This document shows, piece after piece, positions 1 to 13,406 of a stretch of 64,000 nucleotides of DNA. The position numbers and the translations under genes were made by a program. The notes under the pieces were generated by a model. That model saw nothing but the letters and a program-made list of their open reading frames with translations, searched no databases and was not told the DNA's origin. This stretch comes from Patescibacteria group bacterium (GTDB lineage: Bacteria; Patescibacteriota; Microgenomatia; UM-FILTER-40-11), in NCBI GenBank assembly GCA_035530075.1, contig DATKVM010000005.1, positions 22,823-86,822 of the forward strand. Direction: 5' to 3'. Every line of letters starts with the position of its first letter. Position 1 is the stretch's first letter.

Positions 1-379
1 GGAAAGAGGTCGAGCGGTAGAGGAAAGAGCCAGAGAAGCTTTTTGGAATTTTATTGGTTCCTCCGATTGCCCCCCTTGGCTAACCGGCTATCTCCCCGCT
101 CAAGGCACCTTGGCTGATGAAGACGGAGGCGTTGATGGTTATGTTTTCACCGATATGGACGAGATTGAAATTCAAATTAAATCTTCCCCCAAAGGAGTCG
201 CCTGGGCCAAAAAAACCCATCCTAAAGTACCGGTTTTTTGCGTTGAGTCAACCTATTTTTCCGATAGCGAAATTATGGCCATTTTCCTTCCCCGACTGAG
301 AAAAATAAGAAACCGGCGGTATAACCAAGCCCGCCGCCAAACTCAATCCTCAACCTTCTCTCTTTGCTTGAAAAAATGA
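1..379 (+). CDS. C-terminal fragment of an unidentified protein; the ORF is open to the window edge in this frame
   Basis: The frame of ORF 110..379 stays open back to nt 2 with no stop, so the gene starts upstream of the window. No recognisable motif. Confidence 0.3.
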   Translation, partial: ERGRAVEERAREAFWNFIGSSDCPPWLTGYLPAQGTLADEDGGVDGYVFTDMDEIEIQIKSSPKGVAWAKKTHPKVPVFCVESTYFSDSEIMAIFLPRLRKIRNRRYNQARRQTQSSTFSLCLKK

Positions 380-477
380 GCCTATCAACTTTTTTTTGCT
401 TGAAAAAATAAGCTTGATAGTAATAATCTTTACGCGGCTCTTTACAGCTGTATCTTGAGCCCTTCAAGGAGGGGACA

Positions 478-894
478 ATGTTTAAGGGAAAAGCCAAAAC
501 TAGCTTGACCCTTGAGAACATCAGCAACTTCCTCATGGAGGAACTGATAAAGGCAGAGACGGTGGGGGTAAGCAAAAGAGAAATCCGCACCCTCCTCTTT
601 CGGGGCCGAGAACAAGATGCCCCCCAAATCAGAAGTCTTTTGCGCACCACCATTAAGTCCCTGCCCGCCGTCAGCGTCGGCGACCGCTGGTACTTAGAGG
701 AATTCGCTCCTCGCAAGAAACCAGAACTACCCACTCCGGCGGAGGAACCAGTAGAAGAAGTGGAAGAAAAGGAAATCGCGGTGCCGCGGACGGAGAGATA
801 TCAGCACATCTCTTTCATCCGCATGAAAACCCCTTACGGCATCGTATCCATGGAGGAAATCGACGCTAACGTCACCCTCGACTTCAACTACTAA
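478..894 (+). CDS. hypothetical protein
   Basis: 138 aa ORF with RBS-like GGAGGGG at ~469. No recognisable domain. Confidence 0.4.
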   Translation: MFKGKAKTSLTLENISNFLMEELIKAETVGVSKREIRTLLFRGREQDAPQIRSLLRTTIKSLPAVSVGDRWYLEEFAPRKKPELPTPAEEPVEEVEEKEIAVPRTERYQHISFIRMKTPYGIVSMEEIDANVTLDFNY

Positions 895-905
895 CAGCAA
901 ATAGA

Positions 906-948
906 GCACGGAGGGAAACCCCTACCTAAAAACTCTCCGTGCTCTCCC
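906..948 (+). terminator. hairpin with an 11 bp perfect stem (AGAGCACGGAG / CTCCGTGCTCT) downstream of the 478..894 gene
   Basis: Read directly. 21 nt loop, followed by a weak T-rich stretch. Confidence 0.35.
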
Positions 949-1007
949 AATTTCTAAATCTCCTCCGTCTTGCGCTCCCCGAAAAATCAGCATATATTTA
1001 ATTAAGA

Positions 1008-1694
1008 ATGCCGGCTCAAAAGCGCTCTTCTTCTGGTTTTACCCTTTTTGAACTGCTTATCGCCATCACTGTTTTGGCAGTCTTGTTTATCGGCAGTGCC
1101 TTGACTGCCAGCGCTCAATTGAGAAAAGCCCGCGACGGAAGAAGAAAGTCCGATATAAATCGCATAAAAATTGCTCTCTACGACTACTACTTTGACCAAG
1201 GCTGTTTCCCCGAAACTCTCCCCACTTGCGGCCAACCGCTGAAACTGGGGGAAACCGCCTACCTTAATAATTTTCCCTGCGACCCTCAGGGAAACCCTTA
1301 TGTTTATCAAACCGACCGGACTAATTGTCTTTGGTTTAAAGTTCTCACTAACTTAGAAAATGCGCGGGACCCCGATATTGACCGCATCGGTTGCCGGACC
1401 GGCTGCGGACCCGACTGCCAATATAACTACGGATTGGCCAGCACTAATATTACTGTCTACGATGGTTGCGTCAGATACTTTGCCTGCAATCCCGGAGGGC
1501 AATGCCAAGAATATGATAATCCCGAGCAAAGCCAGTGTCCCGTTACTTATAAAAATGACCCCAATTGCGCTGGCCTTTGTCCCACGAGTACTAAAAGCGG
1601 TCGTTGCAAGGATGCGAGCGGCAAGCAAGAGCCGGGAGCAAATGAGCCGCCAACCAAATCCCCTGAAGGGCCGGCCAAAAAAGGCCCCAAGTAG
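1008..1694 (+). CDS. type IV pilin / pseudopilin-like protein with prepilin N-terminal cleavage-methylation motif
   Basis: N-terminus ...SSGFTLFELLIAITVLAVL matches the G|FTLxE prepilin signal plus a hydrophobic helix. The C-terminal domain has 12 Cys and a K/P/E-rich tail. Confidence 0.75.
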   Translation: MPAQKRSSSGFTLFELLIAITVLAVLFIGSALTASAQLRKARDGRRKSDINRIKIALYDYYFDQGCFPETLPTCGQPLKLGETAYLNNFPCDPQGNPYVYQTDRTNCLWFKVLTNLENARDPDIDRIGCRTGCGPDCQYNYGLASTNITVYDGCVRYFACNPGGQCQEYDNPEQSQCPVTYKNDPNCAGLCPTSTKSGRCKDASGKQEPGANEPPTKSPEGPAKKGPK

Positions 1695-1743
1695 ACTCCT
1701 CTTACCCACTTATTACTGATTTTTTCTTTGATTTTTACCGGCG

Positions 1744-3165
1744 TTGTTTATCTTCGACTTCATGACTAATTTAAGACGCCATCTACCAAAGTTACTCTTG
1801 CTCCTCGGCTTACTGGCCTTCTCCGCCAGAAGCCAAACTCCGCCTTCGGCCTTAGCCCAAATTAGCAACTGGCAAAGAGGCGTCAGCGTGGAACCAACTT
1901 CCCCGACCACTTTCGGCGAAAACCCTTTTAAAGAATCATTGAGAAATTTAGCGGCCACCGGCGCCAATTCCGTCGCTCTCATTATTCCTTACTATCAATC
2001 CTCCCTGACGGCCACCGATTTGGACCGAGGCTGGAATACCCCCACCGATGAATCCTTAATTGAAGCAATCAATTACGCTCATTCCATTGGTTTAAAAGTA
2101 ATGCTCAAAGTCCACCCGGAAGTTAAAACTAACGAATGGCGCGGTTTTATCAATCCGGACGACCGGGCCGGCTGGTTTAATAATTACGGCCAGATTTTAG
2201 AACACTATGCCGCCCTGGGGCGCGATTACGCCGTCGAAGAAATCTGCCTGGGGGCAGAGCTTTTCAAAGTCACTTCACCCAGCAGTAATTCCACTAATAC
2301 CGAAAACTGGAATCAGCTCATTGATCGAGTCAAAGAAACTTACTCCGGTCAGCTAACTTACAGCGCTCAACATACTTATCCGCGGGAAGCCGAGGAAATC
2401 GAGTTTTGGAACCGGCTCGACCATATCGGCTTTGCCGCTTACTTCGCTCTTGCCCCCGACGACCCCGATCCTTCTTTGGAAACGCTTAAGAACGCTTGGG
2501 ACAAAGTCAACACCGAGGCCATCGCTCCGCTGGCCCAAAAATGGAATAAACCGGTTTTGCTTACCGAAATTGGTTATCGAAGTATGGATAATACTCATGC
2601 CGACCCTTGGGACTGGGGCCGCGATGGCAACGTTAACGAAGAAGAACAGGCCCGCAATTACGAAGCCCTGCTTTCTTACTGGAACGACCAATCCTCCATG
2701 GCCGGAGTTTATTTTTGGAAATGGGAAGCGGATCCGAATGCCGGCGGCAACGCGGATACGGGCTATACGCCTCAAAATAAACAAGCTCAAGAAGTCCTAA
2801 CTACTTGGTTTGGCGGTAATGCCTTAACGCCCACGCCCACTGAGGAAATCACTCCCACTCCAAGCGCTGAACCCACTCCCTCTGAAGAACCGGAGCCAAC
2901 TCTCCCTCCCGAAGAGGAATTAACCCCGACTCCTACCGAAGAACCGGAGCCAACCCCGACCGAAACTGTCCCCACCCCAACCTTGCCGCCGTCTGAACCG
3001 ACTCTTCCGCCAACACCAACCAGCCCGCCTCAACCTCACCATCCCTGCTGTCCTCAGATTGATTGGCCCAGTCTTCCCGCTTGGCCCGCTCTACCCGAAC
3101 CGCCAGCTCGCCCGGAACCACCCGCCACCCCCGATTTATCAAAGCTAATGAGCCTCTTTTATTAA
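1744..3165 (+). CDS. secreted clan GH-A (cellulase-superfamily TIM barrel) glycoside hydrolase with a Pro/Thr/Glu-rich C-terminal linker
   Basis: Signal-peptide-like N-terminus (LLLLLGLLAFSARS). Putative acid/base motif ICLGAEL and nucleophile motif LLTEIGY. PT-rich low-complexity tail TPTPTEEPEPTPTE... Confidence 0.55.
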   Translation: MFIFDFMTNLRRHLPKLLLLLGLLAFSARSQTPPSALAQISNWQRGVSVEPTSPTTFGENPFKESLRNLAATGANSVALIIPYYQSSLTATDLDRGWNTPTDESLIEAINYAHSIGLKVMLKVHPEVKTNEWRGFINPDDRAGWFNNYGQILEHYAALGRDYAVEEICLGAELFKVTSPSSNSTNTENWNQLIDRVKETYSGQLTYSAQHTYPREAEEIEFWNRLDHIGFAAYFALAPDDPDPSLETLKNAWDKVNTEAIAPLAQKWNKPVLLTEIGYRSMDNTHADPWDWGRDGNVNEEEQARNYEALLSYWNDQSSMAGVYFWKWEADPNAGGNADTGYTPQNKQAQEVLTTWFGGNALTPTPTEEITPTPSAEPTPSEEPEPTLPPEEELTPTPTEEPEPTPTETVPTPTLPPSEPTLPPTPTSPPQPHHPCCPQIDWPSLPAWPALPEPPARPEPPATPDLSKLMSLFY

Positions 3166-3169
3166 GTTG

Positions 3170-3436
3170 ATGGAAAATAAAAAGACCACTGTCATTATTA
3201 AAAACCATGCTTTTAATCCTGCCGAGACGCAAGTGGCCGTGGGCCAAATGGTAATTTGGCGAAATGAGGATCTCGTTCCCCACACCGTCGTCAGTGACCC
3301 CGACGGCAGTATTTTCAAAAGCGGGATAATTGTCTACAGAACAACCACCTCCTTTACTTTTGATAAGGCGGGAGAATACCCTTATCACTGCAGCATCCAC
3401 CCCAATATGCACGGCAAAGTCACTGTCAAAGAGTAA
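3170..3436 (+). CDS. small cupredoxin (type-1 blue copper protein, plastocyanin/amicyanin-like) with no evident signal peptide
   Basis: Ligand pattern His (VPHTVV) plus C-terminal YHCSIHPNMHG (Cys-x2-His-x2-Met). The track ORF begins 3167 at TTG; the first ATG is at 3170. Confidence 0.6.
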   Translation: MENKKTTVIIKNHAFNPAETQVAVGQMVIWRNEDLVPHTVVSDPDGSIFKSGIIVYRTTTSFTFDKAGEYPYHCSIHPNMHGKVTVKE

Positions 3437-3437
3437 T

Positions 3438-3908
3438 TTAAGGGTTAAGCTGGACAATAGAAAAGTTAAGCGCGGCCGCAAAACCAACCCAAATTAAGTA
3501 GGGCAAAAGGAGCCAGGCCGCCGTCCGGGAAACCCGCCCGAAAACAAGGACAGTCGCCAAAATGGCCAGCCAAAGAAAAACTATCTCCACGAAACCGGCC
3601 AAGGGGTTTTGCAGACCAAAAAACAAATAAGTCCAGAGAACATTTAGGCCTAACTGCAGTAAAAATATCCCCAAACCGAGTCTGACCTCTCTTCTATTTA
3701 ACCCTGCCTGCCAAACTAAGTAAGCGGCAATCCCCATAAGCAGGAAAAGCAAAGTCCAAACCGGGGCAAAAAGAAAATTAGGCGGGCTAAAAATTGGCTG
3801 GCGCAAGGAAGGATACCAAGTCGAAAGTGAAGGGGCAGCAAAAATGGCGCCAACCACTCCGGCCAGCTCGCTGACAAAAATGGCGATAACTAATTTTACC
3901 CAGTTCAC
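3438..3908 (-). CDS. tspO: TspO/MBR family tryptophan-rich sensory protein
   Basis: WYPSLRQPIFSPPNFLFAPVWTLLFLLMGIAAYLVW and five predicted TM helices match the TspO signature. Confidence 0.8.
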   Translation of the reverse strand: MNWVKLVIAIFVSELAGVVGAIFAAPSLSTWYPSLRQPIFSPPNFLFAPVWTLLFLLMGIAAYLVWQAGLNRREVRLGLGIFLLQLGLNVLWTYLFFGLQNPLAGFVEIVFLWLAILATVLVFGRVSRTAAWLLLPYLIWVGFAAALNFSIVQLNP

Positions 3909-3953
3909 AAAAAAGACTTTAATCAGAAAGGCTAAAAAAGTAAAGCAAAATTA

Positions 3954-5279
3954 TTAAACCCGACAGGGTAATTTTGATTGAAGCATAACGATGTTTTCCG
4001 CCCCTTGCCGAAAAAGATTGGGTAACTGATAGGCTTTATGCATGGAATCCGCTAATTTTCCTTCGGAGATTAAATTCACAATTTGCCTCCGGGCTTTCCT
4101 GACCTTCAAAACTCGGCCAATGCCATTTCTGATAAATCTTTTTCTGATATTTTCTTCCCACTCGCCCCAAGGAGTCAAAAACAACAAGAAACAACCCGCC
4201 ACTGCCGCATCATAAGTCATATCACCGGACGGTTTAGTGATAAATCCCTGAGCCCAAGGAAAAACGTATTTAATCAGATTTTCGTTGGCGTCAATAATTG
4301 AATCTTCATACAAAATGCGAATAACCGCTTCTTCATTATCCAAATTGCCAATATTAATATGCTGCTTTCGGGCAAAATCTTCAAAAAAATCTCTAAAATC
4401 ACGATGTGTCCCCGCGTAAAGAAAAAGCCTTATTCTTTCCGGCGCTCTTAATAACGGAGCCAGCGACTGAAGGACTTTTTTAATTTCCCCTAAGTTGGTC
4501 CCTAAGCCGCCAGTAGTCACGGCCAGATTAATCGGTTTTCCTTTTTCAATCTTTTTTTCTTTTTTTCCTATCTTTATGATTCTTGGATCAACAGGCGGAC
4601 CGCTTACGACAACCTGATCGTCGGCAATGGTCTTTTTCTGCCTTTGCGCCTCTTTCATAAAATCTTTTTTGGTCTCTTCATCAAAAACGGCATAAATTAT
4701 GTTTTCGGAAGGCAAACAGCCCAGATATTGAGGCCTGACATGAGGATCAGTTACTACCTGCACTACTTTCTTCCCGTTCTTAACCAAAATATTACCCGCT
4801 TCATAATGAAGGGAAATAATAGGGCAACGGGTCTCCTCGGTCAGATACAAAAGCGGTTCAACTACCGCCTCGGTTATGGGAAGTTTATTTCTCACTATCG
4901 TTTCGACTTTATTCTTGAGCCACTTAAGTGTCCGGTGTCTGGCTATTAAACGCCCAACCGTTTCTATAAGTTCAACTTTGCCCCAATTTCGCTCACTAAC
5001 ATAATTAGTCGGATCGGAGAAATGAGCGGTTTTCCTCAGTTTTTTTGCCGCCTCATAAACAGCTACCGCCATCGAATAATGGGCCCGGGAAAAAACTACA
5101 TCGTCCGCCGTATGATACAAAGCCCGATAGCGGTGGGCCAATTCTTTCCTAAAGGTCGCCGAAACGGTCACAATGGGCACCTGAACGGGATGGAATAAAG
5201 TTCTTTCTTGCTCCAAGGCCGAGAGTAAATCCATTTTTTCCCTATCTAAAGATTTGTTCGGTTCCGCCAAAGTGCTCAT
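3954..5279 (-). CDS. GT-B fold glycosyltransferase, GT28/MGDG-synthase-like (putative glycolipid synthase)
   Basis: C-terminal domain begins INLAVTTGGLG and contains ITKPSGDMTYDAAVAGCFLLF, typical of MurG/MGDG-synthase C-terminal halves. Confidence 0.45.
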   Translation of the reverse strand: MSTLAEPNKSLDREKMDLLSALEQERTLFHPVQVPIVTVSATFRKELAHRYRALYHTADDVVFSRAHYSMAVAVYEAAKKLRKTAHFSDPTNYVSERNWGKVELIETVGRLIARHRTLKWLKNKVETIVRNKLPITEAVVEPLLYLTEETRCPIISLHYEAGNILVKNGKKVVQVVTDPHVRPQYLGCLPSENIIYAVFDEETKKDFMKEAQRQKKTIADDQVVVSGPPVDPRIIKIGKKEKKIEKGKPINLAVTTGGLGTNLGEIKKVLQSLAPLLRAPERIRLFLYAGTHRDFRDFFEDFARKQHINIGNLDNEEAVIRILYEDSIIDANENLIKYVFPWAQGFITKPSGDMTYDAAVAGCFLLFLTPWGEWEENIRKRFIRNGIGRVLKVRKARRQIVNLISEGKLADSMHKAYQLPNLFRQGAENIVMLQSKLPCRV

Positions 5280-5344
5280 AGCTTATGATTATATTTAATT
5301 AAGTAGCAAAAAAACAGGGGAAGTTAGTTACTCTTAAAGTGGTT

Positions 5345-5938
5345 TTATCCAAAAACGACTCTTACGGCTTCATCCTCATAAGCAGGTTCTTTTGTTTCAG
5401 GAATTCTATAACTGTGATCAGCTCCCTCGACAGATAAATAACTTACATCTTTTGATATCGCCCCACTCATGTCGTTTTTAACAGCCTCAATATCTCCAAA
5501 CTTATCTCTACTTCCTTGAATAATCACAATTTTCCCCGGAAATTTTTTCAAATCAATATATCCAATATCGTACCCAAAGATAACAAGGCCAAACTTCCCT
5601 ATTTGATCTTTATCAATCTTTTTTAAGTAATATCCTGCAACCACACCGCCTAAAGACTTCCCTATCAATCTGATATTTTTATACTCATTTGAGCGACAAA
5701 AATCCAGCACCGATTGTAAAGTGTCAATTTCTTCAATCAGTTCTGGTCCGGATGAATTCTCTTCACCTCTTTCAATATACGGAAAATTGAATGCAACCAC
5801 ACTGTTACCTCTTTTCCTCGAAGCATCCACAATTTTACTAATTAGACTAGAATCCATCCCTTGGGAACCTCCATGCAAAACAACATCAAGAGTTTTAGCC
5901 TTATTTTTATAAAAATATTTTAGATTAGGCAAGTTCAT
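5345..5938 (-). CDS. alpha/beta hydrolase (GxSxG serine hydrolase, dienelactone-hydrolase-like)
   Basis: Nucleophile elbow GKSLGG and a C-terminal His. Lower GC than the core genes. Confidence 0.55.
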   Translation of the reverse strand: MNLPNLKYFYKNKAKTLDVVLHGGSQGMDSSLISKIVDASRKRGNSVVAFNFPYIERGEENSSGPELIEEIDTLQSVLDFCRSNEYKNIRLIGKSLGGVVAGYYLKKIDKDQIGKFGLVIFGYDIGYIDLKKFPGKIVIIQGSRDKFGDIEAVKNDMSGAISKDVSYLSVEGADHSYRIPETKEPAYEDEAVRVVFG

Positions 5939-6007
5939 ATTTTGCTGATATCAGTATAATCTCTCAATGGGAAACATCGGTCTTGAACCATTTCAGCCTA
6001 ATAACAT

Positions 6008-6838
6008 TTAAACAAGAAATGTGCCTGGAAAAATAGCATTAATTTCATTCTTTAGTTTTTTAATTGCCTCTATTGCAAAAACTTTATTTATTGTTGTAAC
6101 TTTTTTTCCTGCGTAGTTCAAGGAAGAACCTATATGCCAAATTTCGGCATCGCCATCAAGACATATATACCTATCATGAATTTTAATACTGGATTTTACA
6201 TTGGTATTTGAATGTATCATTTTTACATTTTCTGCGTCTTGGACAATTTTTCTGCAATTTTTTGTATAAAGAGATAATATTATTTCTGGTTTTATTTCAG
6301 ATAAAAGATACGCTAACTCCTTTGTCGTCCAAAAATTATCAATTACAAGGATAGATTTTCTAGCTTTTTTGAAAATTTTCTTGAACCAATCCTGGGCTTG
6401 AATTTGGTCATTACTACCAAGCACTATTTGAGGTGGAATTTCTTCCTTATCAAAATTGAATGATGTTGCATCCCCTTTAATAACATTAAACTTTCTTAAG
6501 TAATTATTTACTCCATCTTCGAATATTATTTCAATTTTATACTCACCATAATTATCTATTGGCCATATTAATGGAAAACAAATACTCTTTTCTAAATTAT
6601 CGTCAGGTTGTTTTGGAAAATCGAAGCTATTAAGTAGACTACCATCTGGTTTATAAAAATTAAGTTTCTTTTTTATTTTTGCCGATTCTGCAGAAATCCA
6701 TACAACAATATACCCTTTAAAAAGATAGTTTACATGAGGAATCGCAATTTGTTTTTGAGGTAAAACATCAAGTAAATTAATTCTTCCGTAAGAACCTTCA
6801 GAAACGTGCTCGCAAAATAATGAAAAAAACACTCTCAT
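6008..6838 (-). CDS. hypothetical protein with a variant PLD-like (HxR...D...GSSLN) C-terminal motif
   Basis: IHDRYICLDGDAEIWHIGSSLN resembles the PLD HxK-x4-D-x6-GSxN motif with K to R and altered spacing. The N-terminal ~150 aa are unrecognised. Very AT-rich. Confidence 0.35.
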   Translation of the reverse strand: MRVFFSLFCEHVSEGSYGRINLLDVLPQKQIAIPHVNYLFKGYIVVWISAESAKIKKKLNFYKPDGSLLNSFDFPKQPDDNLEKSICFPLIWPIDNYGEYKIEIIFEDGVNNYLRKFNVIKGDATSFNFDKEEIPPQIVLGSNDQIQAQDWFKKIFKKARKSILVIDNFWTTKELAYLLSEIKPEIILSLYTKNCRKIVQDAENVKMIHSNTNVKSSIKIHDRYICLDGDAEIWHIGSSLNYAGKKVTTINKVFAIEAIKKLKNEINAIFPGTFLV

Positions 6839-7057
6839 AAATACAACTCCTCAGAAAATAGGGGTGCCCGTCTTGGCTGAGCTTACGGGTCTAGTACCAT
6901 TTAGTCCCATAAGCAACTATTCTCAGTGTATCACATTCAAGGCTAAATGAGACAGTATAAAAAGGGAAACTCCCCGCCGTTATCAAGAACACGATGGAGT
7001 AACTTCTTATTACTCTTAAGAATAGTTAACATTTTGGTAAGATTATCGCATATTTTA

Positions 7058-7066
7058 TGCTATAAT
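7058..7066 (+). promoter_or_regulatory. extended -10 element TGCTATAAT upstream of the Nudix operon
   Basis: Exact TGnTATAAT ~25 nt upstream of the ATG at 7090. The same nonamer precedes rnpB. Confidence 0.4.
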
Positions 7067-7089
7067 ACGGCAAGTTTAATTTAAGGCTT

Positions 7090-7473
7090 ATGATTACAAT
7101 ATCCGCGATTTTAATTACTAGTAACGGAAAATATTTATTGGTACAAGAGAATAAACCAGATGATATAGGGTGGACTATTCCGGCAGGAAAAGTGCGAGAT
7201 CAAGAAAGCCCCGAAGAGGGCGCTATTCGAGAGGCTAAGGAAGAAACGGGATTAGAGGTAAAAATTGACGATTTAATTGATACTTTGGAATTTAGTGAGA
7301 AAAATACAATAATGAAAGTCTATAAAGCTAGAGCGATTGGCGGGAATTTAAGGCTAAATGATAAGGAATGCATGGGCATGGGCTGGTTTGACTGGGAAGA
7401 AATTAAACATCTTAGTTTAAGAAGGAAATTCATCAAAGATGTAATTGAAAAGGACATTAATCGTAGGGAGTGA
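7090..7473 (+). CDS. NUDIX hydrolase
   Basis: Nudix box GKVRDQESPEEGAIREAKEETGLEV (Gx5Ex7REUxEExGU). Confidence 0.75.
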   Translation: MITISAILITSNGKYLLVQENKPDDIGWTIPAGKVRDQESPEEGAIREAKEETGLEVKIDDLIDTLEFSEKNTIMKVYKARAIGGNLRLNDKECMGMGWFDWEEIKHLSLRRKFIKDVIEKDINRRE

Positions 7474-7477
7474 TAAT

Positions 7478-8608
7478 ATGGGGAATCCAGAGAAATCACC
7501 ACAAATTACTCAAGAAGAAGTTTTAGAAAAATGGGGTTTGAAACCATTTCCTGTGGGTGAAATATACTCGCCATTACCCGAATCTGCATTCAGTAAGGAA
7601 GTGGGTGAGAAGGTCAGCCAAGTCAGAGTTAGCGTTCCCGGAAGATTAAATTGCTTGATTAAGGACCCTGTTGCCCTTGTAAGAAGAGAAGCGACCGGTG
7701 AATTCAATTATGGAGAAATATCTTTTGGGATAGATTTAATGACACATGCTGAAGCCAGAACAGCTAAGGGGAATAGTATTATTATTGCAGAAAGTACTAA
7801 TCGCCCTAGTTTAGTACGACACTTTGCTGAAATTGTGAGAAAATCTATCGATTATGACGGTGGAATTTATATTGAAGCAAATAACGATTTTCCGTATTCG
7901 CACATTGGGATTGGTTCTTCGGCGGCGCTTGCCACCGCTACGACTTTAGCTATTAATAAACTTACGGGTGAACCCATTAAAACAGAGGCTCTTCCTTTAT
8001 TTTTAGCAAGAAATTATGGCGAAGAAATTGTAGACGACCCCAACCTCCTAGTTCCCGTTCAGTGTACGGGAGGAACTTCCTTAATGGCTTTACATGGCGG
8101 GCTAATAGCTGTAGAAAATAGCGAAGTCGTGCAGAGGATGGAAATCCCAGATGGGCTAAATTATGTATTAGCTATTCCAAGTTTTCCCAGACCAGACGCA
8201 AAAGGTGCTATGGCTAGAGAAATTGATGCCGTTTTTCAGCATATTTTAGAATCTGCTCGACATATGCAACCCTTTTTTGCTCAAAGATTTCAAGAGGTTA
8301 GGAGGGCTATGTCTTTGTCTGATATTAGGGCGGTGGGGAAAGCAATTGAAGAAGTCGATTCAGATGAAGTAATAATGCAGGGGTACGAAAACATGTTTCC
8401 AGGCATTGGCGAACAATACAAAACCGTGAGAGATTCATTGCAAGAATATCAACCAGTTTGTACTTTTATTTCCTCTGCAGGCCCTAGTTTTATAACACTT
8501 TGTGACTCAGAAGTATTGAAGGGAATTATGAACACTCACCATCAGATAGGTTTTCAAGAGGTGATAGCTTCAAAACCAGTTAATCAAGGCTTTAGGTATG
8601 AGAAGTGA
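7478..8608 (+). CDS. GHMP-kinase superfamily protein, beta-ribofuranosylaminobenzene-5'-phosphate synthase-like
   Basis: GHMP motif 2 IGIGSSAALATATT, motif 3-like SSAGPSFITL, and N-terminal VPGRLNCLIKDP resembling the PSRLHFGLID motif of beta-RFAP synthase/MptG-type members. Start moved to the ATG at 7478 behind RBS AGGGAG; the track start 7445 would overlap the Nudix gene. Confidence 0.55.
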   Translation: MGNPEKSPQITQEEVLEKWGLKPFPVGEIYSPLPESAFSKEVGEKVSQVRVSVPGRLNCLIKDPVALVRREATGEFNYGEISFGIDLMTHAEARTAKGNSIIIAESTNRPSLVRHFAEIVRKSIDYDGGIYIEANNDFPYSHIGIGSSAALATATTLAINKLTGEPIKTEALPLFLARNYGEEIVDDPNLLVPVQCTGGTSLMALHGGLIAVENSEVVQRMEIPDGLNYVLAIPSFPRPDAKGAMAREIDAVFQHILESARHMQPFFAQRFQEVRRAMSLSDIRAVGKAIEEVDSDEVIMQGYENMFPGIGEQYKTVRDSLQEYQPVCTFISSAGPSFITLCDSEVLKGIMNTHHQIGFQEVIASKPVNQGFRYEK

Positions 8609-9209
8609 GGTAGAAAGGTATGTTATAACTGGTGCTCCTCGCTCCGGCAAAACCACCGTAGTCAGAGAACTAGGGAAAAGACATAAAACGTTTGAAGAAC
8701 CAGTTGTGAGAGTTGTTAAGCAGCGGGTAGAGCAACTCAAGGGAGATCAACAAATTGATATTCCTAAACACAGCATCCCTCTTGAAATACTTTTTCCTGA
8801 TAAGAGAGAATTCCTTGCAAGTAGTCAAAGACTATTTTTGTTTGATTACGATGAATCCCAAGCATACGATTTATCTTTCTTTGATCGAGGCCTCCCTGAT
8901 CTTATTGTCCTGCATGAGTTGTTAGACGTTCCAATTCCTGCAGATTTAATAGATGTTATTAAGGACCACAGATATAGCAATAGGGTTTTTATTTTTGATT
9001 TATTAGAAAGAGAAATTTTTCAAGAACATAGAAATAAAAGGCCCAATATGTTTAATTCCTATGAAGAATGTTTACGAATTAGAGACAGAATTATGGATGT
9101 ATATCACCAAAGCGGATACTCTATTACTTTAGTTCCTTTTGATTCAGTTGAAAACAGAGAGTTGTTTGTCATGAGAAAGCTTGAAGATAATCTATCAGTA
9201 AAATTTTAA
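8598..9209 (+). CDS. P-loop NTPase, small nucleoside/nucleotide-kinase-like (AAA_28/AAA_33-like)
   Basis: Walker A GAPRSGKTT at residues 12-20. Size and layout resemble small P-loop kinases. Overlaps the upstream gene by 11 nt. Confidence 0.5.
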   Translation: MRSEVERYVITGAPRSGKTTVVRELGKRHKTFEEPVVRVVKQRVEQLKGDQQIDIPKHSIPLEILFPDKREFLASSQRLFLFDYDESQAYDLSFFDRGLPDLIVLHELLDVPIPADLIDVIKDHRYSNRVFIFDLLEREIFQEHRNKRPNMFNSYEECLRIRDRIMDVYHQSGYSITLVPFDSVENRELFVMRKLEDNLSVKF

Positions 9210-9466
9210 GCCGCACGGAACAAGTATAATGTCCTTAGCTAGCCTCAAGGAAAAATCCTTTTTTTGGCGAACAGTTGTATCTTCATGACCGGAAGGTCGT
9301 ATCTTCGAGGGTAAAAAAGACCGCTGAATAACAAGGGTACGGTCCGAAACTTTCTAAAATAAAATGACACTTAGTAAGCAATATCGGGCTTTTTTAGAGC
9401 TTACGGTCGCTTGGTGTCCAGTCGTGCTGAGCGGGCCGGTCTAGACCCTTTTGAGCCCATAACTAA

Positions 9467-10237
9467 TTACGCCAACCTTTGAAAAATACAATCTTCTAAA
9501 TTAGCCCTGTAAAAAGCAATCCTTTTCCCAATACATTCTCCGATTAATTTGTTCACATATTTGTCACGGGCGTATTTCCCATTCTCAAATAAAGCATCAC
9601 TTTCTTTTTCCAGTAATTCGTAATATTTGAAGAATTGTTCTATGGGCAAAACAAATGAATCATTTCCTCTAACAAAAGCAAAAATCTCATCATCAGAAAC
9701 AACAACCCCAATCTTATCTCTTTCGACAAGCAGAAAATTCGCAAAATCACCCTCGCTTGGAGGGTTTCCGGTTGGATGAACATGAACAGTCCCGACAAGC
9801 GTTTTACCTTTTTCTACAATGACGTTAAATATATCAAGATAACTTCCCGAATAATCGGCAGGTATTAAAATAAATTTTTTTTGTCCCTTTGTCTTCATTG
9901 GCACACTGTGAAGTTTTTCTCTAATTTCTCCATTCGAAGAATTGGTCAAATCCACAATATCAGTTTCAACCAAAATGACGGTGCCGACACTTAAATCTCT
10001 CAGTTTTATTCTGTTCAAAGGGTCAATAAACAAGACCCCAGAAACTTCTTTTCCTTCCAGATTGGGAATATCAGAAAAGCCTTGAGCTTTTGACCATTTT
10101 TTTAGTGCCAAAAAACCGTATTTTACTTCATCACCTAGATAAAAACGGTCCGGCATTTTTACTACTGACAAATTTTCATCAAGAAACTTGCCGTCAGAGA
10201 TGTTGCCATTTTTTACCTCGGTTTGATTTTCTGGCAT
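9467..10237 (-). CDS. JAB/MPN (JAMM/RadC-like) domain protein with an unknown N-terminal domain
   Basis: C-terminal VHVHPTGNPPSEGD is close to the HxH-x7-S-xx-D JAMM motif but with one residue less. ATG start at 10237; the track starts at TTG 10243. Confidence 0.45.
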   Translation of the reverse strand: MPENQTEVKNGNISDGKFLDENLSVVKMPDRFYLGDEVKYGFLALKKWSKAQGFSDIPNLEGKEVSGVLFIDPLNRIKLRDLSVGTVILVETDIVDLTNSSNGEIREKLHSVPMKTKGQKKFILIPADYSGSYLDIFNVIVEKGKTLVGTVHVHPTGNPPSEGDFANFLLVERDKIGVVVSDDEIFAFVRGNDSFVLPIEQFFKYYELLEKESDALFENGKYARDKYVNKLIGECIGKRIAFYRANLEDCIFQRLA

Positions 10238-10348
10238 ATCCAAATTTTAGCACTTTTTCCTTCGGTTCCTTCGATTTCACCCAGGTCGAGTTCGCTCACC
10301 ACATTTGACTACTTTGGCTATAGCCATGGGCGAACGAAGTGAGTCGAA

Positions 10349-10422
10349 TGGCTGGGAGACTAGGATTCGAACCTAGATGAGATGCTTCAGAGGCACCTAT
10401 CCTACCGTTAGATGATCTCCCA
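10349..10422 (-). tRNA. tRNA-Gln (anticodon CUG), CCA encoded
   Basis: Reverse complement UGGGAGAUCAUCUAACGGUAGGAUAGGUGCCUCUGAAGCAUCUCAUCUAGGUUCGAAUCCUAGUCUCCCAGCCA. Has a U1-A72 acceptor, GGUUCGAAUCC T-arm and anticodon loop CUCUGAA. Confidence 0.8.
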
Positions 10423-10534
10423 ATGATTCCCTATCTGGAGTTATTTTACCAAAAAACAGCCTCTAAATGAAGCCCGAGAGGAATTTGACAAAAACCCAAA
10501 AAATAGATTAGTCTTAAAGAAGGAGGAATTATTT

Positions 10535-11191
10535 ATGAAAAAAGTAACTTTGGGCGTTTTTTGCTTAGCCCTTCTGACTTTATTAACTACCTCTAGCACT
10601 CAAGCGGTTCCTTCGGTCCAAACCAAGAATCAAACTCAGCTTCAGCAAACCACCGTCACCCCGACCGGGCAGACGGTCAAAAACCAAAATCAAGTCCAAA
10701 CCAGAAATGCCGGTGAGGAAGAACAGTTAAGAATTACTCTCCAGGAAGAAGAGGGCTCAACTCCCCCCGGCCAATTAAGAAGTGCCGAGCGCAAAAGTGA
10801 AGTCGCCAAAGCGGTCCAGTTGCTTCTTTCCGCCGCCGATCGCAGCGGCGGCATTGGTCCGCAAATCCGGGAAATTGCCCGGGCTCAAAACGAGGGCCAA
10901 ACTAAAGCGGAAGCCAATTTACTCCAAGCCCGGCGGGAAAATAAAGTCGCTCAGCTGATTTTAGGCTCGAATTACCAAAACCTGAAAGAGGCCAAAAAAG
11001 AATTAACCCAAATTGAGGCCCGGGCAAGAAAGCTTCAGCAGATTCAAACCAAGTTAACTAACCAAGGAGCTCAGCAGCAAATCCAAGAAGCCATCCAAAC
11101 CCTGGAAGTTCAAAAAACCGCTCTCCAGGAGGCCTTGCGGCAAGAGGAAAATAGCTTTAGCCTTTTTGGCTGGCTACTAAGGTTTTTCTAA
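10535..11191 (+). CDS. secreted Gln-rich coiled-coil protein (hypothetical)
   Basis: Signal peptide MKKVTLGVFCLALLTLLTTSSTQA, then Q/T/E-rich low-complexity sequence. Confidence 0.4.
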   Translation: MKKVTLGVFCLALLTLLTTSSTQAVPSVQTKNQTQLQQTTVTPTGQTVKNQNQVQTRNAGEEEQLRITLQEEEGSTPPGQLRSAERKSEVAKAVQLLLSAADRSGGIGPQIREIARAQNEGQTKAEANLLQARRENKVAQLILGSNYQNLKEAKKELTQIEARARKLQQIQTKLTNQGAQQQIQEAIQTLEVQKTALQEALRQEENSFSLFGWLLRFF

Positions 11192-11202
11192 GCTCAAAGC
11201 CG

Positions 11203-11868
11203 TTAGTTTTCTTCGGCCAGACAAGAAGATTCTTCCCGAAGGCGGGCAATATCTTTAATGATTAAGCGTCTTCCCTTCCCCGAAGTGAGGCCCTTTTTCT
11301 TTAACTTCAGCATTTGCAAAGTTACCGTTTCCCGGGTTAAACCGGTCATACTGGCAATCGTCCGGTGAGTTGGCGGTAGATCAAGTGTGAGTTCGGTTGT
11401 CCTCTTGGAACTGTCAGCCACTAGAGAAAGGAGAACCGAGACCACCTTCGTGTAGGCGTTACCCGACGCCAGATACTCAATCCTGGCCAATAAGCCCTGG
11501 AAAAGCTCGGTGATATTCTCCATTATTTCCAGAAAAACCTCCGGATCTTCCACCATTAGACTAATCAGTTCCTTTTTGGATATCGCATGGGCCTCGACTG
11601 GGGTGAGAGTTTCCGCATAATATCGGCTTTTAAGCCGGTTGGGGGCAAAGAATAAAGGCAGCAAGGAATGGGGTTTAAGAATAGCAATGGTTACTTCTTG
11701 GCCACTTTTGCAAATGGTATATATCCTAATGAAGCCAGATTTCAGAGAGTAAGATAAATCCAAAAAATCACCCGGTTGATAAATTACTTCATTTCTTTTG
11801 AACTTAATTAAACGGTACTTCTCCAGTAATTTATCAAAAGTTTTCCGATATTTCGTCTCCCGGTTCAT
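11203..11868 (-). CDS. Crp/Fnr family transcriptional regulator
   Basis: N-terminal cNMP-binding-like beta-roll and C-terminal HTH (RTIASMTGLTRETVTLQMLKLKKKG). Confidence 0.7.
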   Translation of the reverse strand: MNRETKYRKTFDKLLEKYRLIKFKRNEVIYQPGDFLDLSYSLKSGFIRIYTICKSGQEVTIAILKPHSLLPLFFAPNRLKSRYYAETLTPVEAHAISKKELISLMVEDPEVFLEIMENITELFQGLLARIEYLASGNAYTKVVSVLLSLVADSSKRTTELTLDLPPTHRTIASMTGLTRETVTLQMLKLKKKGLTSGKGRRLIIKDIARLREESSCLAEEN

Positions 11869-11972
11869 AATTTTTTAATTATTTAATGGTAATTACCATC
11901 TTTAATACATTTCCATAATCTTTTCAGTAATAAAAGACACAATATTATCTTGAAAGGGAAAAAGAAAGCAAT

Positions 11973-13406
11973 TTAAAGAAGTAAGCGGTTCAGTCTAGCC
12001 AAAGTTTCATCTTTACCCAAAATGACCGCTGACTGAGTAATCGGAGGAGTAAAGCGACTGCCAGTCAAAGCAATTCGGAAACTCATATAAAAATCGCCTG
12101 TCTGCCAACCCTCCTCGACGATTAATTTATTTAAGCTTAACTGGATTTCTTCGTTTTCCCATTTTTCCAGCTTTTCTAAAACCGCCGCCGCTTTGATTAA
12201 ATGTTCTTTATGGGGCAAATTGCCGAAGAGCTGGCGGTTAACCGTCGGCTTCACAAAGAAAAAGCCAGCTAAAACCGAAACTTCCGACAGTTTAACGATT
12301 CTTTCCCGGATAAGAGGAATTACTTTGTTCAAAATTTTTTCGTCAGCCCCCTTGGGGACAAACGGTTTTATTAATAAAAGTAAATCTTCGTCGGATTTTT
12401 GGCGAATATAGTGACCGTTAAACCAGTCTAATTTCTTGCGGTTAAAAACTGGATTAGCTGTTTGCAGTTGGCCGGCCTTGAAGTTGGCTACAAATTCCTC
12501 CAGAGTAAAGAGCTCCCGGTTATCTTTCGGTGCCCATCCTAAAAGCATAATGAAGTTTAAAAGTGCTTCCGGTAAATACCCTTCCGCCAAAAATTCTTCA
12601 ATCATTACGCTCCCTTTTCTCTTTGAAAGTTTTCCTCCCGCCGGATCAAGAATATCAGTTAAATGGCCAATTTTAGGCAATTCAAATCCCAAGTACTTAA
12701 AGAGCAATAGATGAACCGGCGTACTGGGCAACCAATCTCGCCCCCGGACAATATGAGAAACCTCCATCGCGTTGTCATCTACCACTACCGCTAAGTGGTA
12801 AGTCGGAAAGCCATCGGACTTCAAAAGCATTACTTCATCAATATTTTTAGTTTCCCAAGAAATTTCTTTATTTAAAACAAAGTCATTGAAAGAAACGGTT
12901 TCATTATCCGGAACTCTCAATCTGATTGCCGGTTTCTGGCCTGATTTTAGCTTCGCCTGGACTTCTTCCGGCGACAAATTCCGACAAGCATCTCTTAAAT
13001 TAATAGTTTTTTGCTCGTGTTCTTCTGCAATCGCTTCTTTTGTTTGCGGTGGACAAAAACAAAAGTAAGCATGACCGCTGGCCACTAGCTTTTCGGCAAA
13101 ATCTTTATAAATCCCCAAGGCCACTTTCTCCGACTGAATATAAGGCCCAAATTTACCGCCAACTACCGGCCCCTCATCCCAATTAAGACCAAAGATTCTT
13201 AAATCTTCTAATATTTTTTCGGTGGCCCCAGGCACGAAGCGGCTTCGGTCGGTATCTTCGATTCTTAAAATGAATTTCCCCTTCTCGCTTTTAGTCAAAG
13301 CATAAGCGTAAAGGGCAGTTCTCAAAGAACCGATGTGGAGAAATCCCGTCGGGCTCGGAGCAAATCTCGTTCTTACCTGCCTGCCGGCAGGCACGGTATC
13401 ATTCAT
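11973..13406 (-). CDS. gltX: glutamyl-tRNA synthetase
   Basis: HIGH motif (PSPTGFLHIGSLRTAL) and KMSKS-like KLSKRKG. Confidence 0.9.
   Translation of the reverse strand: MNDTVPAGRQVRTRFAPSPTGFLHIGSLRTALYAYALTKSEKGKFILRIEDTDRSRFVPGATEKILEDLRIFGLNWDEGPVVGGKFGPYIQSEKVALGIYKDFAEKLVASGHAYFCFCPPQTKEAIAEEHEQKTINLRDACRNLSPEEVQAKLKSGQKPAIRLRVPDNETVSFNDFVLNKEISWETKNIDEVMLLKSDGFPTYHLAVVVDDNAMEVSHIVRGRDWLPSTPVHLLLFKYLGFELPKIGHLTDILDPAGGKLSKRKGSVMIEEFLAEGYLPEALLNFIMLLGWAPKDNRELFTLEEFVANFKAGQLQTANPVFNRKKLDWFNGHYIRQKSDEDLLLLIKPFVPKGADEKILNKVIPLIRERIVKLSEVSVLAGFFFVKPTVNRQLFGNLPHKEHLIKAAAVLEKLEKWENEEIQLSLNKLIVEEGWQTGDFYMSFRIALTGSRFTPPITQSAVILGKDETLARLNRLLL

Follow-up and report, generated by a model that had tools for sequence, protein, structure and literature searches.

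A probable decayed composite island at the 3' end of a tRNA-Gln gene in a Patescibacteria genome

Classical islands linked to tRNA genes are integrated by tyrosine integrases, and their attL and attR sites duplicate the 3' end of the tRNA. In the staphylococcal SCC and SCCmec elements, integration is carried out by the large serine recombinases CcrAB at the 3' end of rlmH/orfX, and tandem elements and recombinase-less pseudo-SCC elements are separated by repeated integration-site sequences.

The block described here lies beside an intact tRNA-Gln gene in a MAG of the Patescibacteria (Microgenomates/CPR), an ultra-small bacterium, within a 64-kb stretch of DNA that we analysed as a whole (the window). 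The architecture of the block resembles the SCC composite islands more closely than it does a tyrosine-integrase tRNA island or an integron. With classical tRNA islands it shares a position directly 3' of an intact tRNA, foreign composition, accessory or defence-type cargo, a site that varies between relatives and tandem accretion of insertions. It differs from them in lacking a tyrosine integrase and a direct repeat of the tRNA 3' half, and its sites have only a ~6-nt core in common with the tRNA and are tied to the end of a serine recombinase gene. As in SCC, a single conserved gene appears to have received serial insertions at its 3' end, direct short copies of the site separate the cargo, some blocks have no recombinase, and the sites are associated with a large serine recombinase (LSR; here in locus L075). 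Differences from SCC are that a tRNA gene of a CPR bacterium serves as target, that the genome retains no recombinase, that sites and cargo are unrelated in sequence to those of SCC, and that the role of the LSR is putative.

We favour, at somewhat better than even confidence, a decayed composite island formed by serial site-specific integration at tRNA-Gln. It is highly likely that the block was acquired horizontally and is a composite island at a tRNA-Gln hotspot; for serine recombinases as its builders we would put the chances at about half. The features of the locus are:

5345..5938, minus strand: 197-aa alpha/beta hydrolase, cargo of module D (Abhydrolase_11, Pfam 1.1e-19; GC3 0.278)
5974..6006, minus strand: motif copy (c), degenerate and without the core (independent profile E = 5e-4; alignment)
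6008..6838, minus strand: 276-aa PLD-like protein, cargo of module C (N-terminal beta-rich domain and variant PLD-like C-terminus)
6861-6873, minus strand: truncated X arm, 13 nt, AGACGGGCACCCC (identical to the tRNA-Gln flank in L096)
6874..6915, minus strand: motif copy (b), end of module B (independent profile E = 1.3e-6)
7090..9209, plus strand: three-gene operon, cargo of module B (Pfam; tight gene spacing and overlap)
7090-7473, plus strand: Nudix hydrolase (NUDIX 5.5e-20)
7478-8608, plus strand: GHMP-fold protein (ATG start; GHMP_kinases_N 7.6e-8; matches database protein P0001)
8598-9209, plus strand: AAA_28 P-loop kinase-like protein (AAA_28 4.5e-19)
9367..9423, minus strand: X right arm (nhmmer; independent profile E = 0.007, weak; translations)
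9425..9465, minus strand: motif copy (a), TTATGGGCTCAAAAGGGTCTAGACCGGCCCGCTCAGCA, ends module A (independent profile E = 6.8e-13)
9467..10243, minus strand: 258-aa JAB/MPN-like protein, cargo of module A (by eye, HVHPTGNPPSEGD and upstream EVSGVLF)
10267..10348, minus strand: Y right arm, immediately after the tRNA 3' end (nhmmer; profile without window sequences E = 4e-8)
10349..10422, minus strand: tRNA-Gln, anticodon CTG (ARAGORN; Rfam tRNA 55.5 bits; junction comparison)

The block stands apart in composition. Its GC content is 36.5% over 5345-10348 (36.7% over 5940-10348) against 44.6% in the remainder of the window, and the 4.4-kb sliding window with the minimum GC of the whole 64 kb begins at 5601. 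GC3 is 0.20-0.34 in the six genes of 5345-10243 (window mean 0.44, sd 0.06); these have the six lowest values among the 73 window genes and are contiguous, for which we calculate a chance of ~68/C(73,6), or ~4e-7. Both flanking genes, p441 (3954-5279; GC3 0.425) and p218 (10535-11191; 0.498), are ordinary in GC3, which puts the start of the block at ~5290-5345, with the alpha/beta hydrolase inside it. In tetranucleotide usage corrected for base composition, 5001-10000 is the top outlier (z = 4.2; r = 0.76 vs a mean of 0.93). An earlier note on this DNA had described an island of ~30% GC starting at ~5.9 kb (5940), called the hydrolase somewhat AT-rich as well, and proposed sliding GC and tetranucleotide usage as checks. 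Both measures do deviate from the window background, and GC content does fall, though by less and over a slightly longer stretch than claimed: only the PLD-like gene, the lowest-GC gene of the window, reaches ~30% (29.0%, GC3 0.20), the GHMP gene has 40.5%, and GC3 moves the start to 5345, placing the hydrolase, AT-rich as had been noted, compositionally within the island.

The surroundings of the site are conserved and its contents are not. The p461-p324-p350-gltX block is syntenic across Microgenomates, and the gltX-crp-tRNA-Gln flank is kept in L001 and L073, the nearest relatives (GluRS 70-71%; ~70% identity is the closest compared outside the genome's own population). Past tRNA-Gln these two hold restriction-modification genes, one set Type III-like (N6_N4_Mtase and ResIII) and one Type I-like (N6_Mtase and Methylase_S); neither has any of the window's island genes at the orthologous site, and those genes were not found in any of 120+ related gltX loci. 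In six of eight relatives, the 5 kb 3' of tRNA-Gln is 3-6.5 GC points lower than the part of the locus that lies upstream. The island is also carried by each of the three further assemblies from this population (~100% identical), so that it is present in 4/4 overall. On these comparisons, the 3' side of tRNA-Gln is a hotspot with variable accessory cargo. The same genes at the same locus with matching composition, which would have spoken against the island proposed by the earlier note, were not seen in relatives among the loci compared.

Three of the four modules, all except the hydrolase, recur singly in other, unrelated contexts, where sequence comparison indicates that they move independently. 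For module A, L143 is 81% identical in nucleotides to window positions 9426-10360 in a different gene context; the match runs from the end of motif (a), at whose 3' end homology stops, to 12 nt inside the tRNA 3' end, and L143 has no tRNA at the matching place, only a tRNA-Gln remnant. For module B, L048 carries a copy with 87-89% nucleotide identity over 7055-8041 and 8927-9209, the match spanning exactly 7055-9209 with an 886-bp internal deletion, and the only other gene common to L048 and the window is 61% identical in amino acids. The Nudix-GHMP-AAA_28 trio is also present in L050-52 and L056-57, in contexts unlike that of the window. In L058 and L060 the module C gene stands by itself, with 29-31% GC where the flanks have 40-42%. 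The earlier proposal of a foreign island of non-housekeeping genes 3' of the tRNA thus agrees with the composition, the variable site, the occurrence of modules elsewhere and the att-like repeats; its single island, while horizontally acquired, is better described as a composite of about four modules than as one element.

The functions of all the cargo are predictions. The PLD-like protein has no Pfam match in its C-terminus, which the earlier note had called a PLD variant; it does match two PADLOC PDC-S05 HMMs (6e-23 and 2.6e-19, residues 126-267). The residues invariant in alignment A6 are H221-D-R...D228...GSSLN241, with the PLD catalytic Lys replaced by Arg. Like PDC-S05 genes, this one is solitary and very AT-rich and occurs in varied contexts; unlike them, its HxK motif reads HxR, and the match is confined to the C-terminal 140 residues, leaving the N-terminal half unmatched. 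One PDC-S05 representative gave E. coli protection from T7, T5 and T4, and that validated protein has a different (RhuM) domain (bioRxiv 10.1101/2024.09.26.614923). The PLD-like protein may therefore be regarded as a candidate single-gene antiphage effector of the PDC-S05 type. The JAB/MPN-like assignment keeps its motifs by eye, and the HMM scores fall below threshold (Prok-JAB E = 0.017, under the Pfam threshold; BilC E = 0.02); the family is tiny, with 3 cluster representatives in 5.8 billion.

Pfam HMMs identify all three operon genes as the Nudix, GHMP and P-loop NTPase proteins first recognised by eye. Proteins of the GHMP family are exceedingly uncommon (72 representatives at E <= 1e-30 among 1.84 billion). 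The window protein keeps kinase-like motifs II and III and matches homoserine kinase (5e-13) better than beta-RFAP synthase (3e-8 and 7e-3), whereas the best NCBIfam match of most of its nearest relatives scanned is beta-RFAP synthase; one family member is named 'predicted sugar kinase' by JGI. This likeness to ForT/beta-RFAP synthase (MptG), the COG1907 branch of the superfamily, has limits: scores are far under the family cut-offs (33 bits vs 328; 15.6 vs 113.5), methanopterin or formycin pathway genes are not nearby, and the partners are Nudix and AAA_28. Other family members are fused to an adenylate-kinase-like P-loop domain (one protein) or to SAM-methyltransferase and PrnB-like domains (one of these fusions having a HEPN/Toprim N-terminus).

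The operon's function is probably nucleotide-related, and the nucleotide-based, defence or small-molecule chemistry suggested earlier for the cargo is plausible. As a tentative proposal, which we hold at rather less than even confidence, the GHMP-fold enzyme, being ForT/beta-RFAP-synthase-like, would make or phosphorylate a small molecule linked to ribose-5-phosphate, in effect an unusual nucleotide; the NMP-kinase-like AAA_28 protein could phosphorylate the product further, and the Nudix hydrolase could hydrolyse its diphosphate form. A less likely alternative, and the strongest of the competing readings, is that the operon serves metabolite or nucleotide salvage in a CPR cell unable to synthesise nucleotides, with no part in defence or toxicity, the island being a mixed bag of fitness genes. 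It would suit the neighbours of GHMP homologues in DPANN archaea and another lineage (adenylate kinase, PfkB kinases, HAD phosphatase, APH/fructosamine kinase, PNP, phosphoribosyltransferase, guanylate kinase, OMP decarboxylase) and the weak PADLOC results for the trio (domain-level only for Nudix, no match for GHMP, and a chance-level mad8 match, E = 0.024, for AAA_28). However, the site holds restriction-modification systems in relatives and a PDC-S05-like gene adjoins the operon, the rarity of the family is unlike a generally useful route, and the methyltransferase and PrnB-like fusions point to specialised small-molecule chemistry.

The modules are separated by repeats. Read in the direction of the tRNA, the order is tRNA-Gln, Y arm, JAB-like gene, motif (a), X arm, operon, motif (b), truncated X arm, PLD-like gene, motif (c) and alpha/beta hydrolase. 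Profiles built from other genomes only find the 45-nt motif three times in the 64 kb, each time in the island, on the tRNA strand and at a module boundary, the copy between the PLD-like gene and the hydrolase being weak. In all seven loci showing both, the motif follows tRNA-Gln on its 3' side and on the same strand, at a distance of 0.03-4.4 kb. Three left arms (the motif, the tRNA-Gln 3' end and an arm Z) join interchangeably to two kinds of right arm, X and Y:

tRNA-X: L001, L075, L083, L096/L020
tRNA-Y: the window, L043; tRNA remnant in L143
motif-X: the window, twice
motif-Y: L006/L134
Z-X: L079 and L075
Z-Y: L084

The core common to the tRNA, motif and Z junctions is CAGCC(A); tRNA-Gln, whose 3' end ...CCCAGCCA holds it, appears to be the anchor or an attB-like left arm. 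The motif was not found in the other contexts of the operon and the PLD-like gene, so these may have entered modules by other routes.

A link to a recombinase comes from L075, where positions 8989-10503 encode an intact 504-aa LSR with Resolvase, Recombinase and Zn_ribbon_recom domains. The L075 motif is the reverse complement of this gene's last six codons, stop codon and 3' UTR: the stop is the TAG within the motif's TCTAGA, and the motif's 3' part, reverse-complemented, reads YWLSEPV-stop. In L084 a 36-aa fossil of the LSR C-terminus adjoins the motif, and the link is based on this fossil and the one intact gene. An LSR-like ORF in L079 does not terminate at a recognised site. The window copies retain the same frame and stop as the L075 gene end (reverse complements VLSGPV-stop for motif (a) and GCPSWLSLRV-stop for motif (b)), and the window X arm may be a relic of the 3' coding end of a recombinase gene. 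Judged from these alignments, the window repeats are related to LSR sites and not simple duplications of the tRNA 3' end. The integrase remnant or partial tRNA-Gln repeat that the earlier note proposed to look for at the distal boundary was not found: 5280-5344 has no repeat or att-like match, our search for exact direct repeats of the tRNA 3' end gave none, and the window has no recombinase gene of either type. What was found instead is degenerate att-like repeats at three internal boundaries.

That the block is an integron-like cassette array (CALIN), with the motif as attC, the tRNA-Gln 3' end as attI and a tyrosine integrase elsewhere, is improbable. Single-gene units each followed by a motif in one orientation, the absence of a local recombinase and a JAB cassette common to two arrays are all as in CALINs, and L143 has four genes in a row with a motif copy after each (two strong, two weak). 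Against this, no secondary structure is conserved in the motif (0 compensatory pairs, -0.13 kcal/mol), motif plus arm folds no better as single-stranded DNA than shuffled sequence does (z -1.75 to +1.35), and the attC hairpin, the R''/R' boxes (RYYYAAC/GTTRRRY) and IntI are missing; the operon module is oriented opposite to the array, and the L075 motif forms the 3' end of a serine recombinase gene instead of standing alone as a hairpin site. Still less credible is native AT-rich lineage DNA without integration, made of weakly expressed or fast-evolving genes with generic intergenic repeats (terminators, REP-like elements or operators of the neighbouring Crp-family regulator): the lack of an integrase and of an exact att duplication, fixation in 4/4 assemblies and a perfect 10-bp palindrome in the motif (GGTCTAGACC) that could suit an operator would fit, but the shift in GC3 is abrupt and limited to six contiguous genes whose tetranucleotides deviate too, the genes are missing from the 120+ related loci, three modules lie in unrelated contexts (one at 87% nucleotide identity vs ~61% in amino acids for a common core gene), the motif is island-only in the 64 kb and 3' of tRNA-Gln in 7/7 loci, and without site-specific recombination it is difficult to explain how arms were swapped at a fixed core.

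A composite island built by serial integration, our preferred reading, builds on the foreign composition, the variable site in relatives, the independent mobility of three of the four modules, the repeats with their junction combinations and the motif-LSR link in L075. Small elements would have integrated repeatedly at the 3' end of tRNA-Gln(CTG), in an order that would leave the newest nearest the tRNA. The 45-nt motif and X arm would be fossil attachment-site arms of LSR-carrying elements, crossover would have taken place in the CAGCC(A) core that is also the 3' end of the tRNA, and we infer that an LSR made these particular junctions. The recombinase genes would since have been lost from this genome, with the cargo alone remaining, so the island is probably immobile.

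Base composition sets the island apart from the rest of the window. In the region 5345-10243 lie six genes with GC3 values of 0.20-0.34, against 0.44 ± 0.06 for the 73 genes, of which they are the six lowest and contiguous; the flanking genes are normal (0.425 and 0.498), and 5001-10000 shows the most deviant tetranucleotide usage when normalised for base composition (z = 4.2). The compositional anomaly is therefore real and sharp-edged, and it runs from the alpha/beta hydrolase gene (5345) on, not from 5940, where the earlier note had placed the start. The lowest-GC 4.4-kb window across the whole 64 kb also falls in the block (start 5601). The drop in GC that had been read by eye stands, while the figure of about 30% is true only of the PLD-like gene (29.0%; the GHMP gene has 40.5%): 5940-10348 has 36.7% and 5345-10348 36.5%, compared with 44.0% for the window and 44.6% for the remainder. 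In essentials, that first observation was right.

Features in and around the island
3954-5279, minus strand: 441-aa protein directly left of the island; composition normal; DUF6938 at 0.0027, below threshold
5345-10348: island
10349-10422, minus strand: tRNA-Gln(CTG), intact
10535-11191, plus strand: 218-aa protein between crp and tRNA-Gln, with a signal-peptide-like N-terminus and Q-rich coiled-coil-like sequence; GC normal, no family match, not conserved in the relatives L001 or L073
33378-37611: second stretch of lowered GC (genes 37-39%)

GC3 is normal in the last of these stretches; unlike that of the island, its GC drop thus comes from amino-acid composition and not from foreign origin.

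The first island gene begins 105 nt downstream of tRNA-Gln, and an Rfam search of 5200-10600 returned nothing beyond the tRNA. The GHMP protein is identical to one from a Patescibacteria MAG (322-kb contig). Loci from other genomes and metagenome contigs are designated here by L and a number; the closest, L046, L047 and L142 (99.99-100% identical), are of the same population, and all carry the island; four samples represent this population (ERZ27256810, SRR8554505, JGI 3300031578 and the NCBI MAG). Other Microgenomates relatives in the genome and metagenome collections reach at most 71% identity in GluRS (11973-13406). The p461-p324-p350-gltX block is syntenic in dozens of them, and in the nearest, L001 and L073, crp and then tRNA-Gln come directly after gltX, as in the window. 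Past tRNA-Gln, neither matches the window: L001 has an N6_N4 methylase and a ResIII helicase (Type III-like R-M), and L073 an N6 methylase and an S subunit (Type I-like R-M). The island is absent from the same site in all relatives found at this distance (GluRS ≤71%), which have other cargo there, and in six of eight relatives the 5 kb 3' of tRNA-Gln lies 3-6.5 GC points below the upstream part of the locus. The differing R-M cargo and the lowered GC identify the tRNA-Gln site as a recurrent variable, defence-type hotspot. It was also observed that gltX and tRNA-Gln(CTG) lie within 0-10 kb of each other in many Microgenomates (window 10349-13406, loci L001-L141), a linkage which may reflect functional pairing of a non-discriminating GluRS with its tRNA-Gln substrate.

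The locus resembles tRNA-linked genomic islands in that it adjoins a tRNA 3' end, is of foreign composition and occupies a site that varies among relatives, all of which supports the genomic-island reading of the earlier note. It differs from them in being without an integrase and without a tRNA-derived direct repeat, two traces which that note had proposed to look for at the distal boundary. Neither turned up: the six island proteins have no integrase or recombinase Pfam domain, and tblastn of the 64 kb with a CPR tyrosine integrase and with a large serine recombinase (LSR) from locus L075 returned nothing. The 15- and 23-nt tRNA-Gln ends have no further copy at up to three mismatches, local alignment to the tRNA end found none in intergenic regions, and a general repeat search of 3000-11000 gave nothing meaningful.

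What does recur is a 45-nt motif (consensus TTATGGGnnnAAAnGGTyCTAGACCGGCCCGCTCAGCCA) which has only the core CAGCC(A), the 3' end of both, in common with tRNA-Gln. Three copies lie in the window, (a) at 9425-9465, (b) at 6874-6915 and (c), which is degenerate, at 5974-6006; all lie at module boundaries on the same strand as the tRNA, in direct orientation between the blocks, and no other copy was found in the 64 kb. When profiles were built from other genomes alone, they matched the window copies at E = 7e-13, 1e-6 and 5e-4, and in 7/7 loci showing both, the motif is 0.03-4.4 kb 3' of tRNA-Gln on the same strand. A single match in a viral contig, within a coding region and without the rest of the motif, was judged to be chance.

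The island has a mosaic make-up: three of the blocks, all but the hydrolase, are found separately in other contexts. The Nudix-GHMP-AAA_28 operon recurs as a unit with unrelated neighbours in other CPR contigs (L050-52, L056-57). A degenerate copy was seen at L048:7907-11108 (JGI 3300033156, 271-kb contig), in a different Microgenomates genome, between tRNA-Val and tRNA-Ile, another tRNA-flanked variable spot. The L048 operon is 87-89% identical to the window in nucleotide sequence exactly over 7055-8041 and 8927-9209, with an internal 886-bp deletion that fuses GHMP and AAA_28 into an ORF of 284 aa. Since the sole other gene common to L048 and the window is 61% identical at the amino-acid level, this similarity suggests that the operon was recently transferred laterally on its own. 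The PLD-like gene is solitary among core genes in L058 and L060, at 29-31% GC in flanks of 40-42%. The JAB-like gene, always found by itself, has three cluster representatives only in 5.8 billion proteins; that of L143, in a different context, is 81% identical in nucleotide sequence over window 9426-10360, and the homology stops on one side at the motif just 3' of the JAB stop codon and on the other 12 nt inside the tRNA 3' end (GTCTCCCAGCCA vs GTCCCCCAGCCA), where L143 has a remnant region in which Rfam finds no tRNA. L143 is also the most cassette-array-like case observed: its positions 1-3300 (Logan SRR22388265) hold consecutive same-strand genes for a Ser_hydrolase, an IMP cyclohydrolase, the JAB-like protein and a SAM-methyltransferase, with a motif copy within ~12 nt after each (two strong, two weak); what is left of a degraded tRNA-Gln 3' end immediately precedes the JAB-like gene.

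To the right of the core, two sequence families are found, X (AGACGGGCACCCCAGTGACC...GAAAAGCCC) and Y (TTCGACTCRCTTCG...GCTATAGCC). Three left arms, the tRNA end, the motif and a third sequence Z, pair with them at CAGCC(A) in 10+ loci.

Junctions of left and right arms at the CAGCC(A) core
tRNA-X: L001, L075, L083, L096/L020
tRNA-Y: window, L043; plus the tRNA remnant in L143
motif-X: window, twice; the second cut to 13 nt identical to the L096 tRNA flank
motif-Y: L006/L134
Z-X: L079, L075
Z-Y: L084

Such swapping of arms at a fixed core is the kind of footprint that site-specific recombination leaves. An attC-like hairpin site is unlikely, as the motif lacks a conserved secondary structure and folding of the composite sites is no better than that of shuffles; no RYYYAAC/GTTRRRY boxes were seen by eye, and the locus is not an integron. 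RNAalifold shows no covarying stem, and the motif was dismissed as a structured RNA.

The motif can be connected to a serine recombinase through L075. Beside the distal motif copy of this locus, a 504-aa ORF (8989-10503) has Resolvase, Recombinase and Zn_ribbon_recom domains and is thus an LSR. Its stop codon is the TAG within the TCTAGA of the motif, and its C-terminal end, YWLSEPV, is encoded by the reverse complement of the 3' part of the motif and the core. A 36-aa fossil of the LSR C-terminus lies beside the motif of L084, and a second such fossil beside a Z arm in L075. In the reverse complements of window copies (a) and (b) the frame and stop are kept (...VLSGPV* and ...GCPSWLSLRV*), and translation of the X arms, once frameshifts are allowed for, gives a related C-terminal peptide (GLFEASRSLGCPSWL in L096). 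On this basis, the arms are read as attP-like: the motif would be the P arm, and X (or W) the P' arm, of sites overlapping LSR-gene 3' ends. At L075:8964-10801, the LSR gene itself lies between two copies of its 3' end in inverted orientation (8964-9123 and 10576-10714), of which one continues into the motif and one into a Z arm; the arrangement may be an invertible segment or a trace left by several recombination events in succession. The L075/L084 flank, considered as an IS inverted repeat, is actually this duplicated 3' end. In L079, the end of an LSR-like ORF coincides with no recognised site.

The window itself has no LSR gene detectable by tblastn with the L075 protein, which in its own locus lies beside the motif. 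The layout would be explained by tandem accretion, in the order tRNA / Y-JAB-motif / X-operon-motif / X'-PLD-motif / hydrolase, with the recombinase bodies since deleted. That an LSR built it is suggested by one intact gene and one fossil.

We also characterized the cargo proteins by profile. The Nudix protein matches PF00293 at 72.2 bits, and its translation has an intact Nudix box, GKVRDQESPEEGAIREAKEETGL (pattern GX5EX7REUXEEXGU). The GHMP protein, whose database entry begins at ATG 7478, matches GHMP_kinases_N above the Pfam threshold, is positive in the GHMP fold test and keeps motifs II (GIGSSAA) and III (SSAGPS); its sequence-profile match to PDB kinases is weak (4e-4). In an exhaustive HMMER search of 1.84 billion representatives, relatives numbered only 291 at E ≤ 1e-3, 161 at E ≤ 1e-10 and 72 at E ≤ 1e-30. 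Most of the nearest relatives that were scanned have beta-RFAP synthase as their top NCBIfam match, far below cut-off, and the window protein likewise scores below the curated cut-offs of TIGR00144 and NF040726 (15.6 bits against 113.5, and 33.1 against 328). Six relatives are fused to SAM-methyltransferases, two to PrnB-like domains (in one case with a HEPN/Toprim N-terminus as well) and one to an adenylate-kinase-like P-loop domain; this last fusion speaks for a functional connection to the neighbouring AAA_28 protein. A PDB sequence search with the AAA_28 protein gave nothing.

Homologues 47-55% identical to the GHMP protein occur in Aenigmatarchaeota and other contigs, next to genes for nucleotide/sugar kinases, HAD phosphatase, DUF447, PNP and phosphoribosyltransferase; with occurrence in both DPANN and CPR, the family is distributed across domains. 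L049 (8693-11116) and L055 (2139-6901), from Aenigmatarchaeota and related contigs, hold a homologue 52-55% identical plus a 31%-identical paralogue, beside PfkB, adenylate kinase, APH/fructosamine kinase, DUF447, HAD and deoxyhypusine synthase genes. The operon is part of a very small uncharacterised clade, sister to ForT/beta-RFAP-synthase enzymes, in which DPANN archaea share. At somewhat below even chances, we tentatively propose that the operon synthesises and turns over an unusual compound linked to ribose-5-phosphate. Plain salvage is a slightly less likely alternative, and a role in defence or as a toxin is a further possible one. A mini-mevalonate/IDI pathway is dismissed, the Nudix protein being too small and the single GHMP protein having no decarboxylase partner, as is NadR-type NAD salvage, for which the basis is only generic AAA_28 and Nudix similarity.

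PDC-S05 HMMs match the C-terminal 140 residues of the PLD-like protein at 6e-23, a partial match of residues 128-267 to profile positions 163-301 of 306. One PDC-S05 representative, with a RhuM domain, protected E. coli against T7, T5 and T4 (bioRxiv 10.1101/2024.09.26.614923). The PLD-like protein has no Pfam PLD match, and in place of the catalytic motif HxKx4D...GSxN it reads H221-D-R223-x4-D228...G237-S-S-L-N241; the change of the HxK Lys to Arg is invariant in 7/7 homologues. Its predicted structure (pLDDT 60) is too poor for a fold search. The JAB-like assignment is sub-threshold (Prok-JAB, 15.4 bits against a cut-off of 25); HVHPTGNPPSEGD is present, with 6 spacer residues against 7 in E...HxHx7Sx2D, and EVSGVLF lies upstream. 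PDB sequence searches with both proteins gave nothing.

SCC-type composite islands are made by LSRs at the 3' end of a conserved gene and include blocks without a recombinase. The architecture of the island appears closest to these: it has repeated direct-orientation site copies between blocks and hybrid sites around a common core, and differs in having no LSR. The kind of feature is well known but this variant of it is not, namely a recombinase-less multi-module tRNA-Gln island in a CPR bacterium with putative serine-recombinase-type site fossils. A narrow literature search on Patescibacteria turned up no paper on integrons, or on LSR elements, with tRNA genes as targets. The operon enzyme family is rare and uncharacterised, counting roughly 70-290 cluster representatives among 1.8 billion proteins, in CPR bacteria and DPANN archaea. 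On a rather improbable reading, Microgenomates have an undescribed cassette-accretion system, in which small LSR-driven elements target the tRNA-Gln 3' end and leave SCC-like recombinase-less arrays, and the Nudix/ForT-like GHMP/NMP-kinase-like operon carried here would make a non-canonical ribonucleotide for antiviral defence or as a toxin.

CPR bacteria, with their tiny genomes, are regarded as poor in mobile elements and defences. The Microgenomates tRNA-Gln hotspot, with its R-M or rare enzyme modules, offers a handle on how they acquire accessory functions, and its putative fossil serine-recombinase sites could give new LSR/att pairs of genome-engineering interest. If the operon makes a modified nucleotide, it would represent new chemistry for nucleotide-based defence or symbiont metabolism. 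Should none of this be so, the locus is still a clean, ordinary example of a tRNA-gene genomic island.
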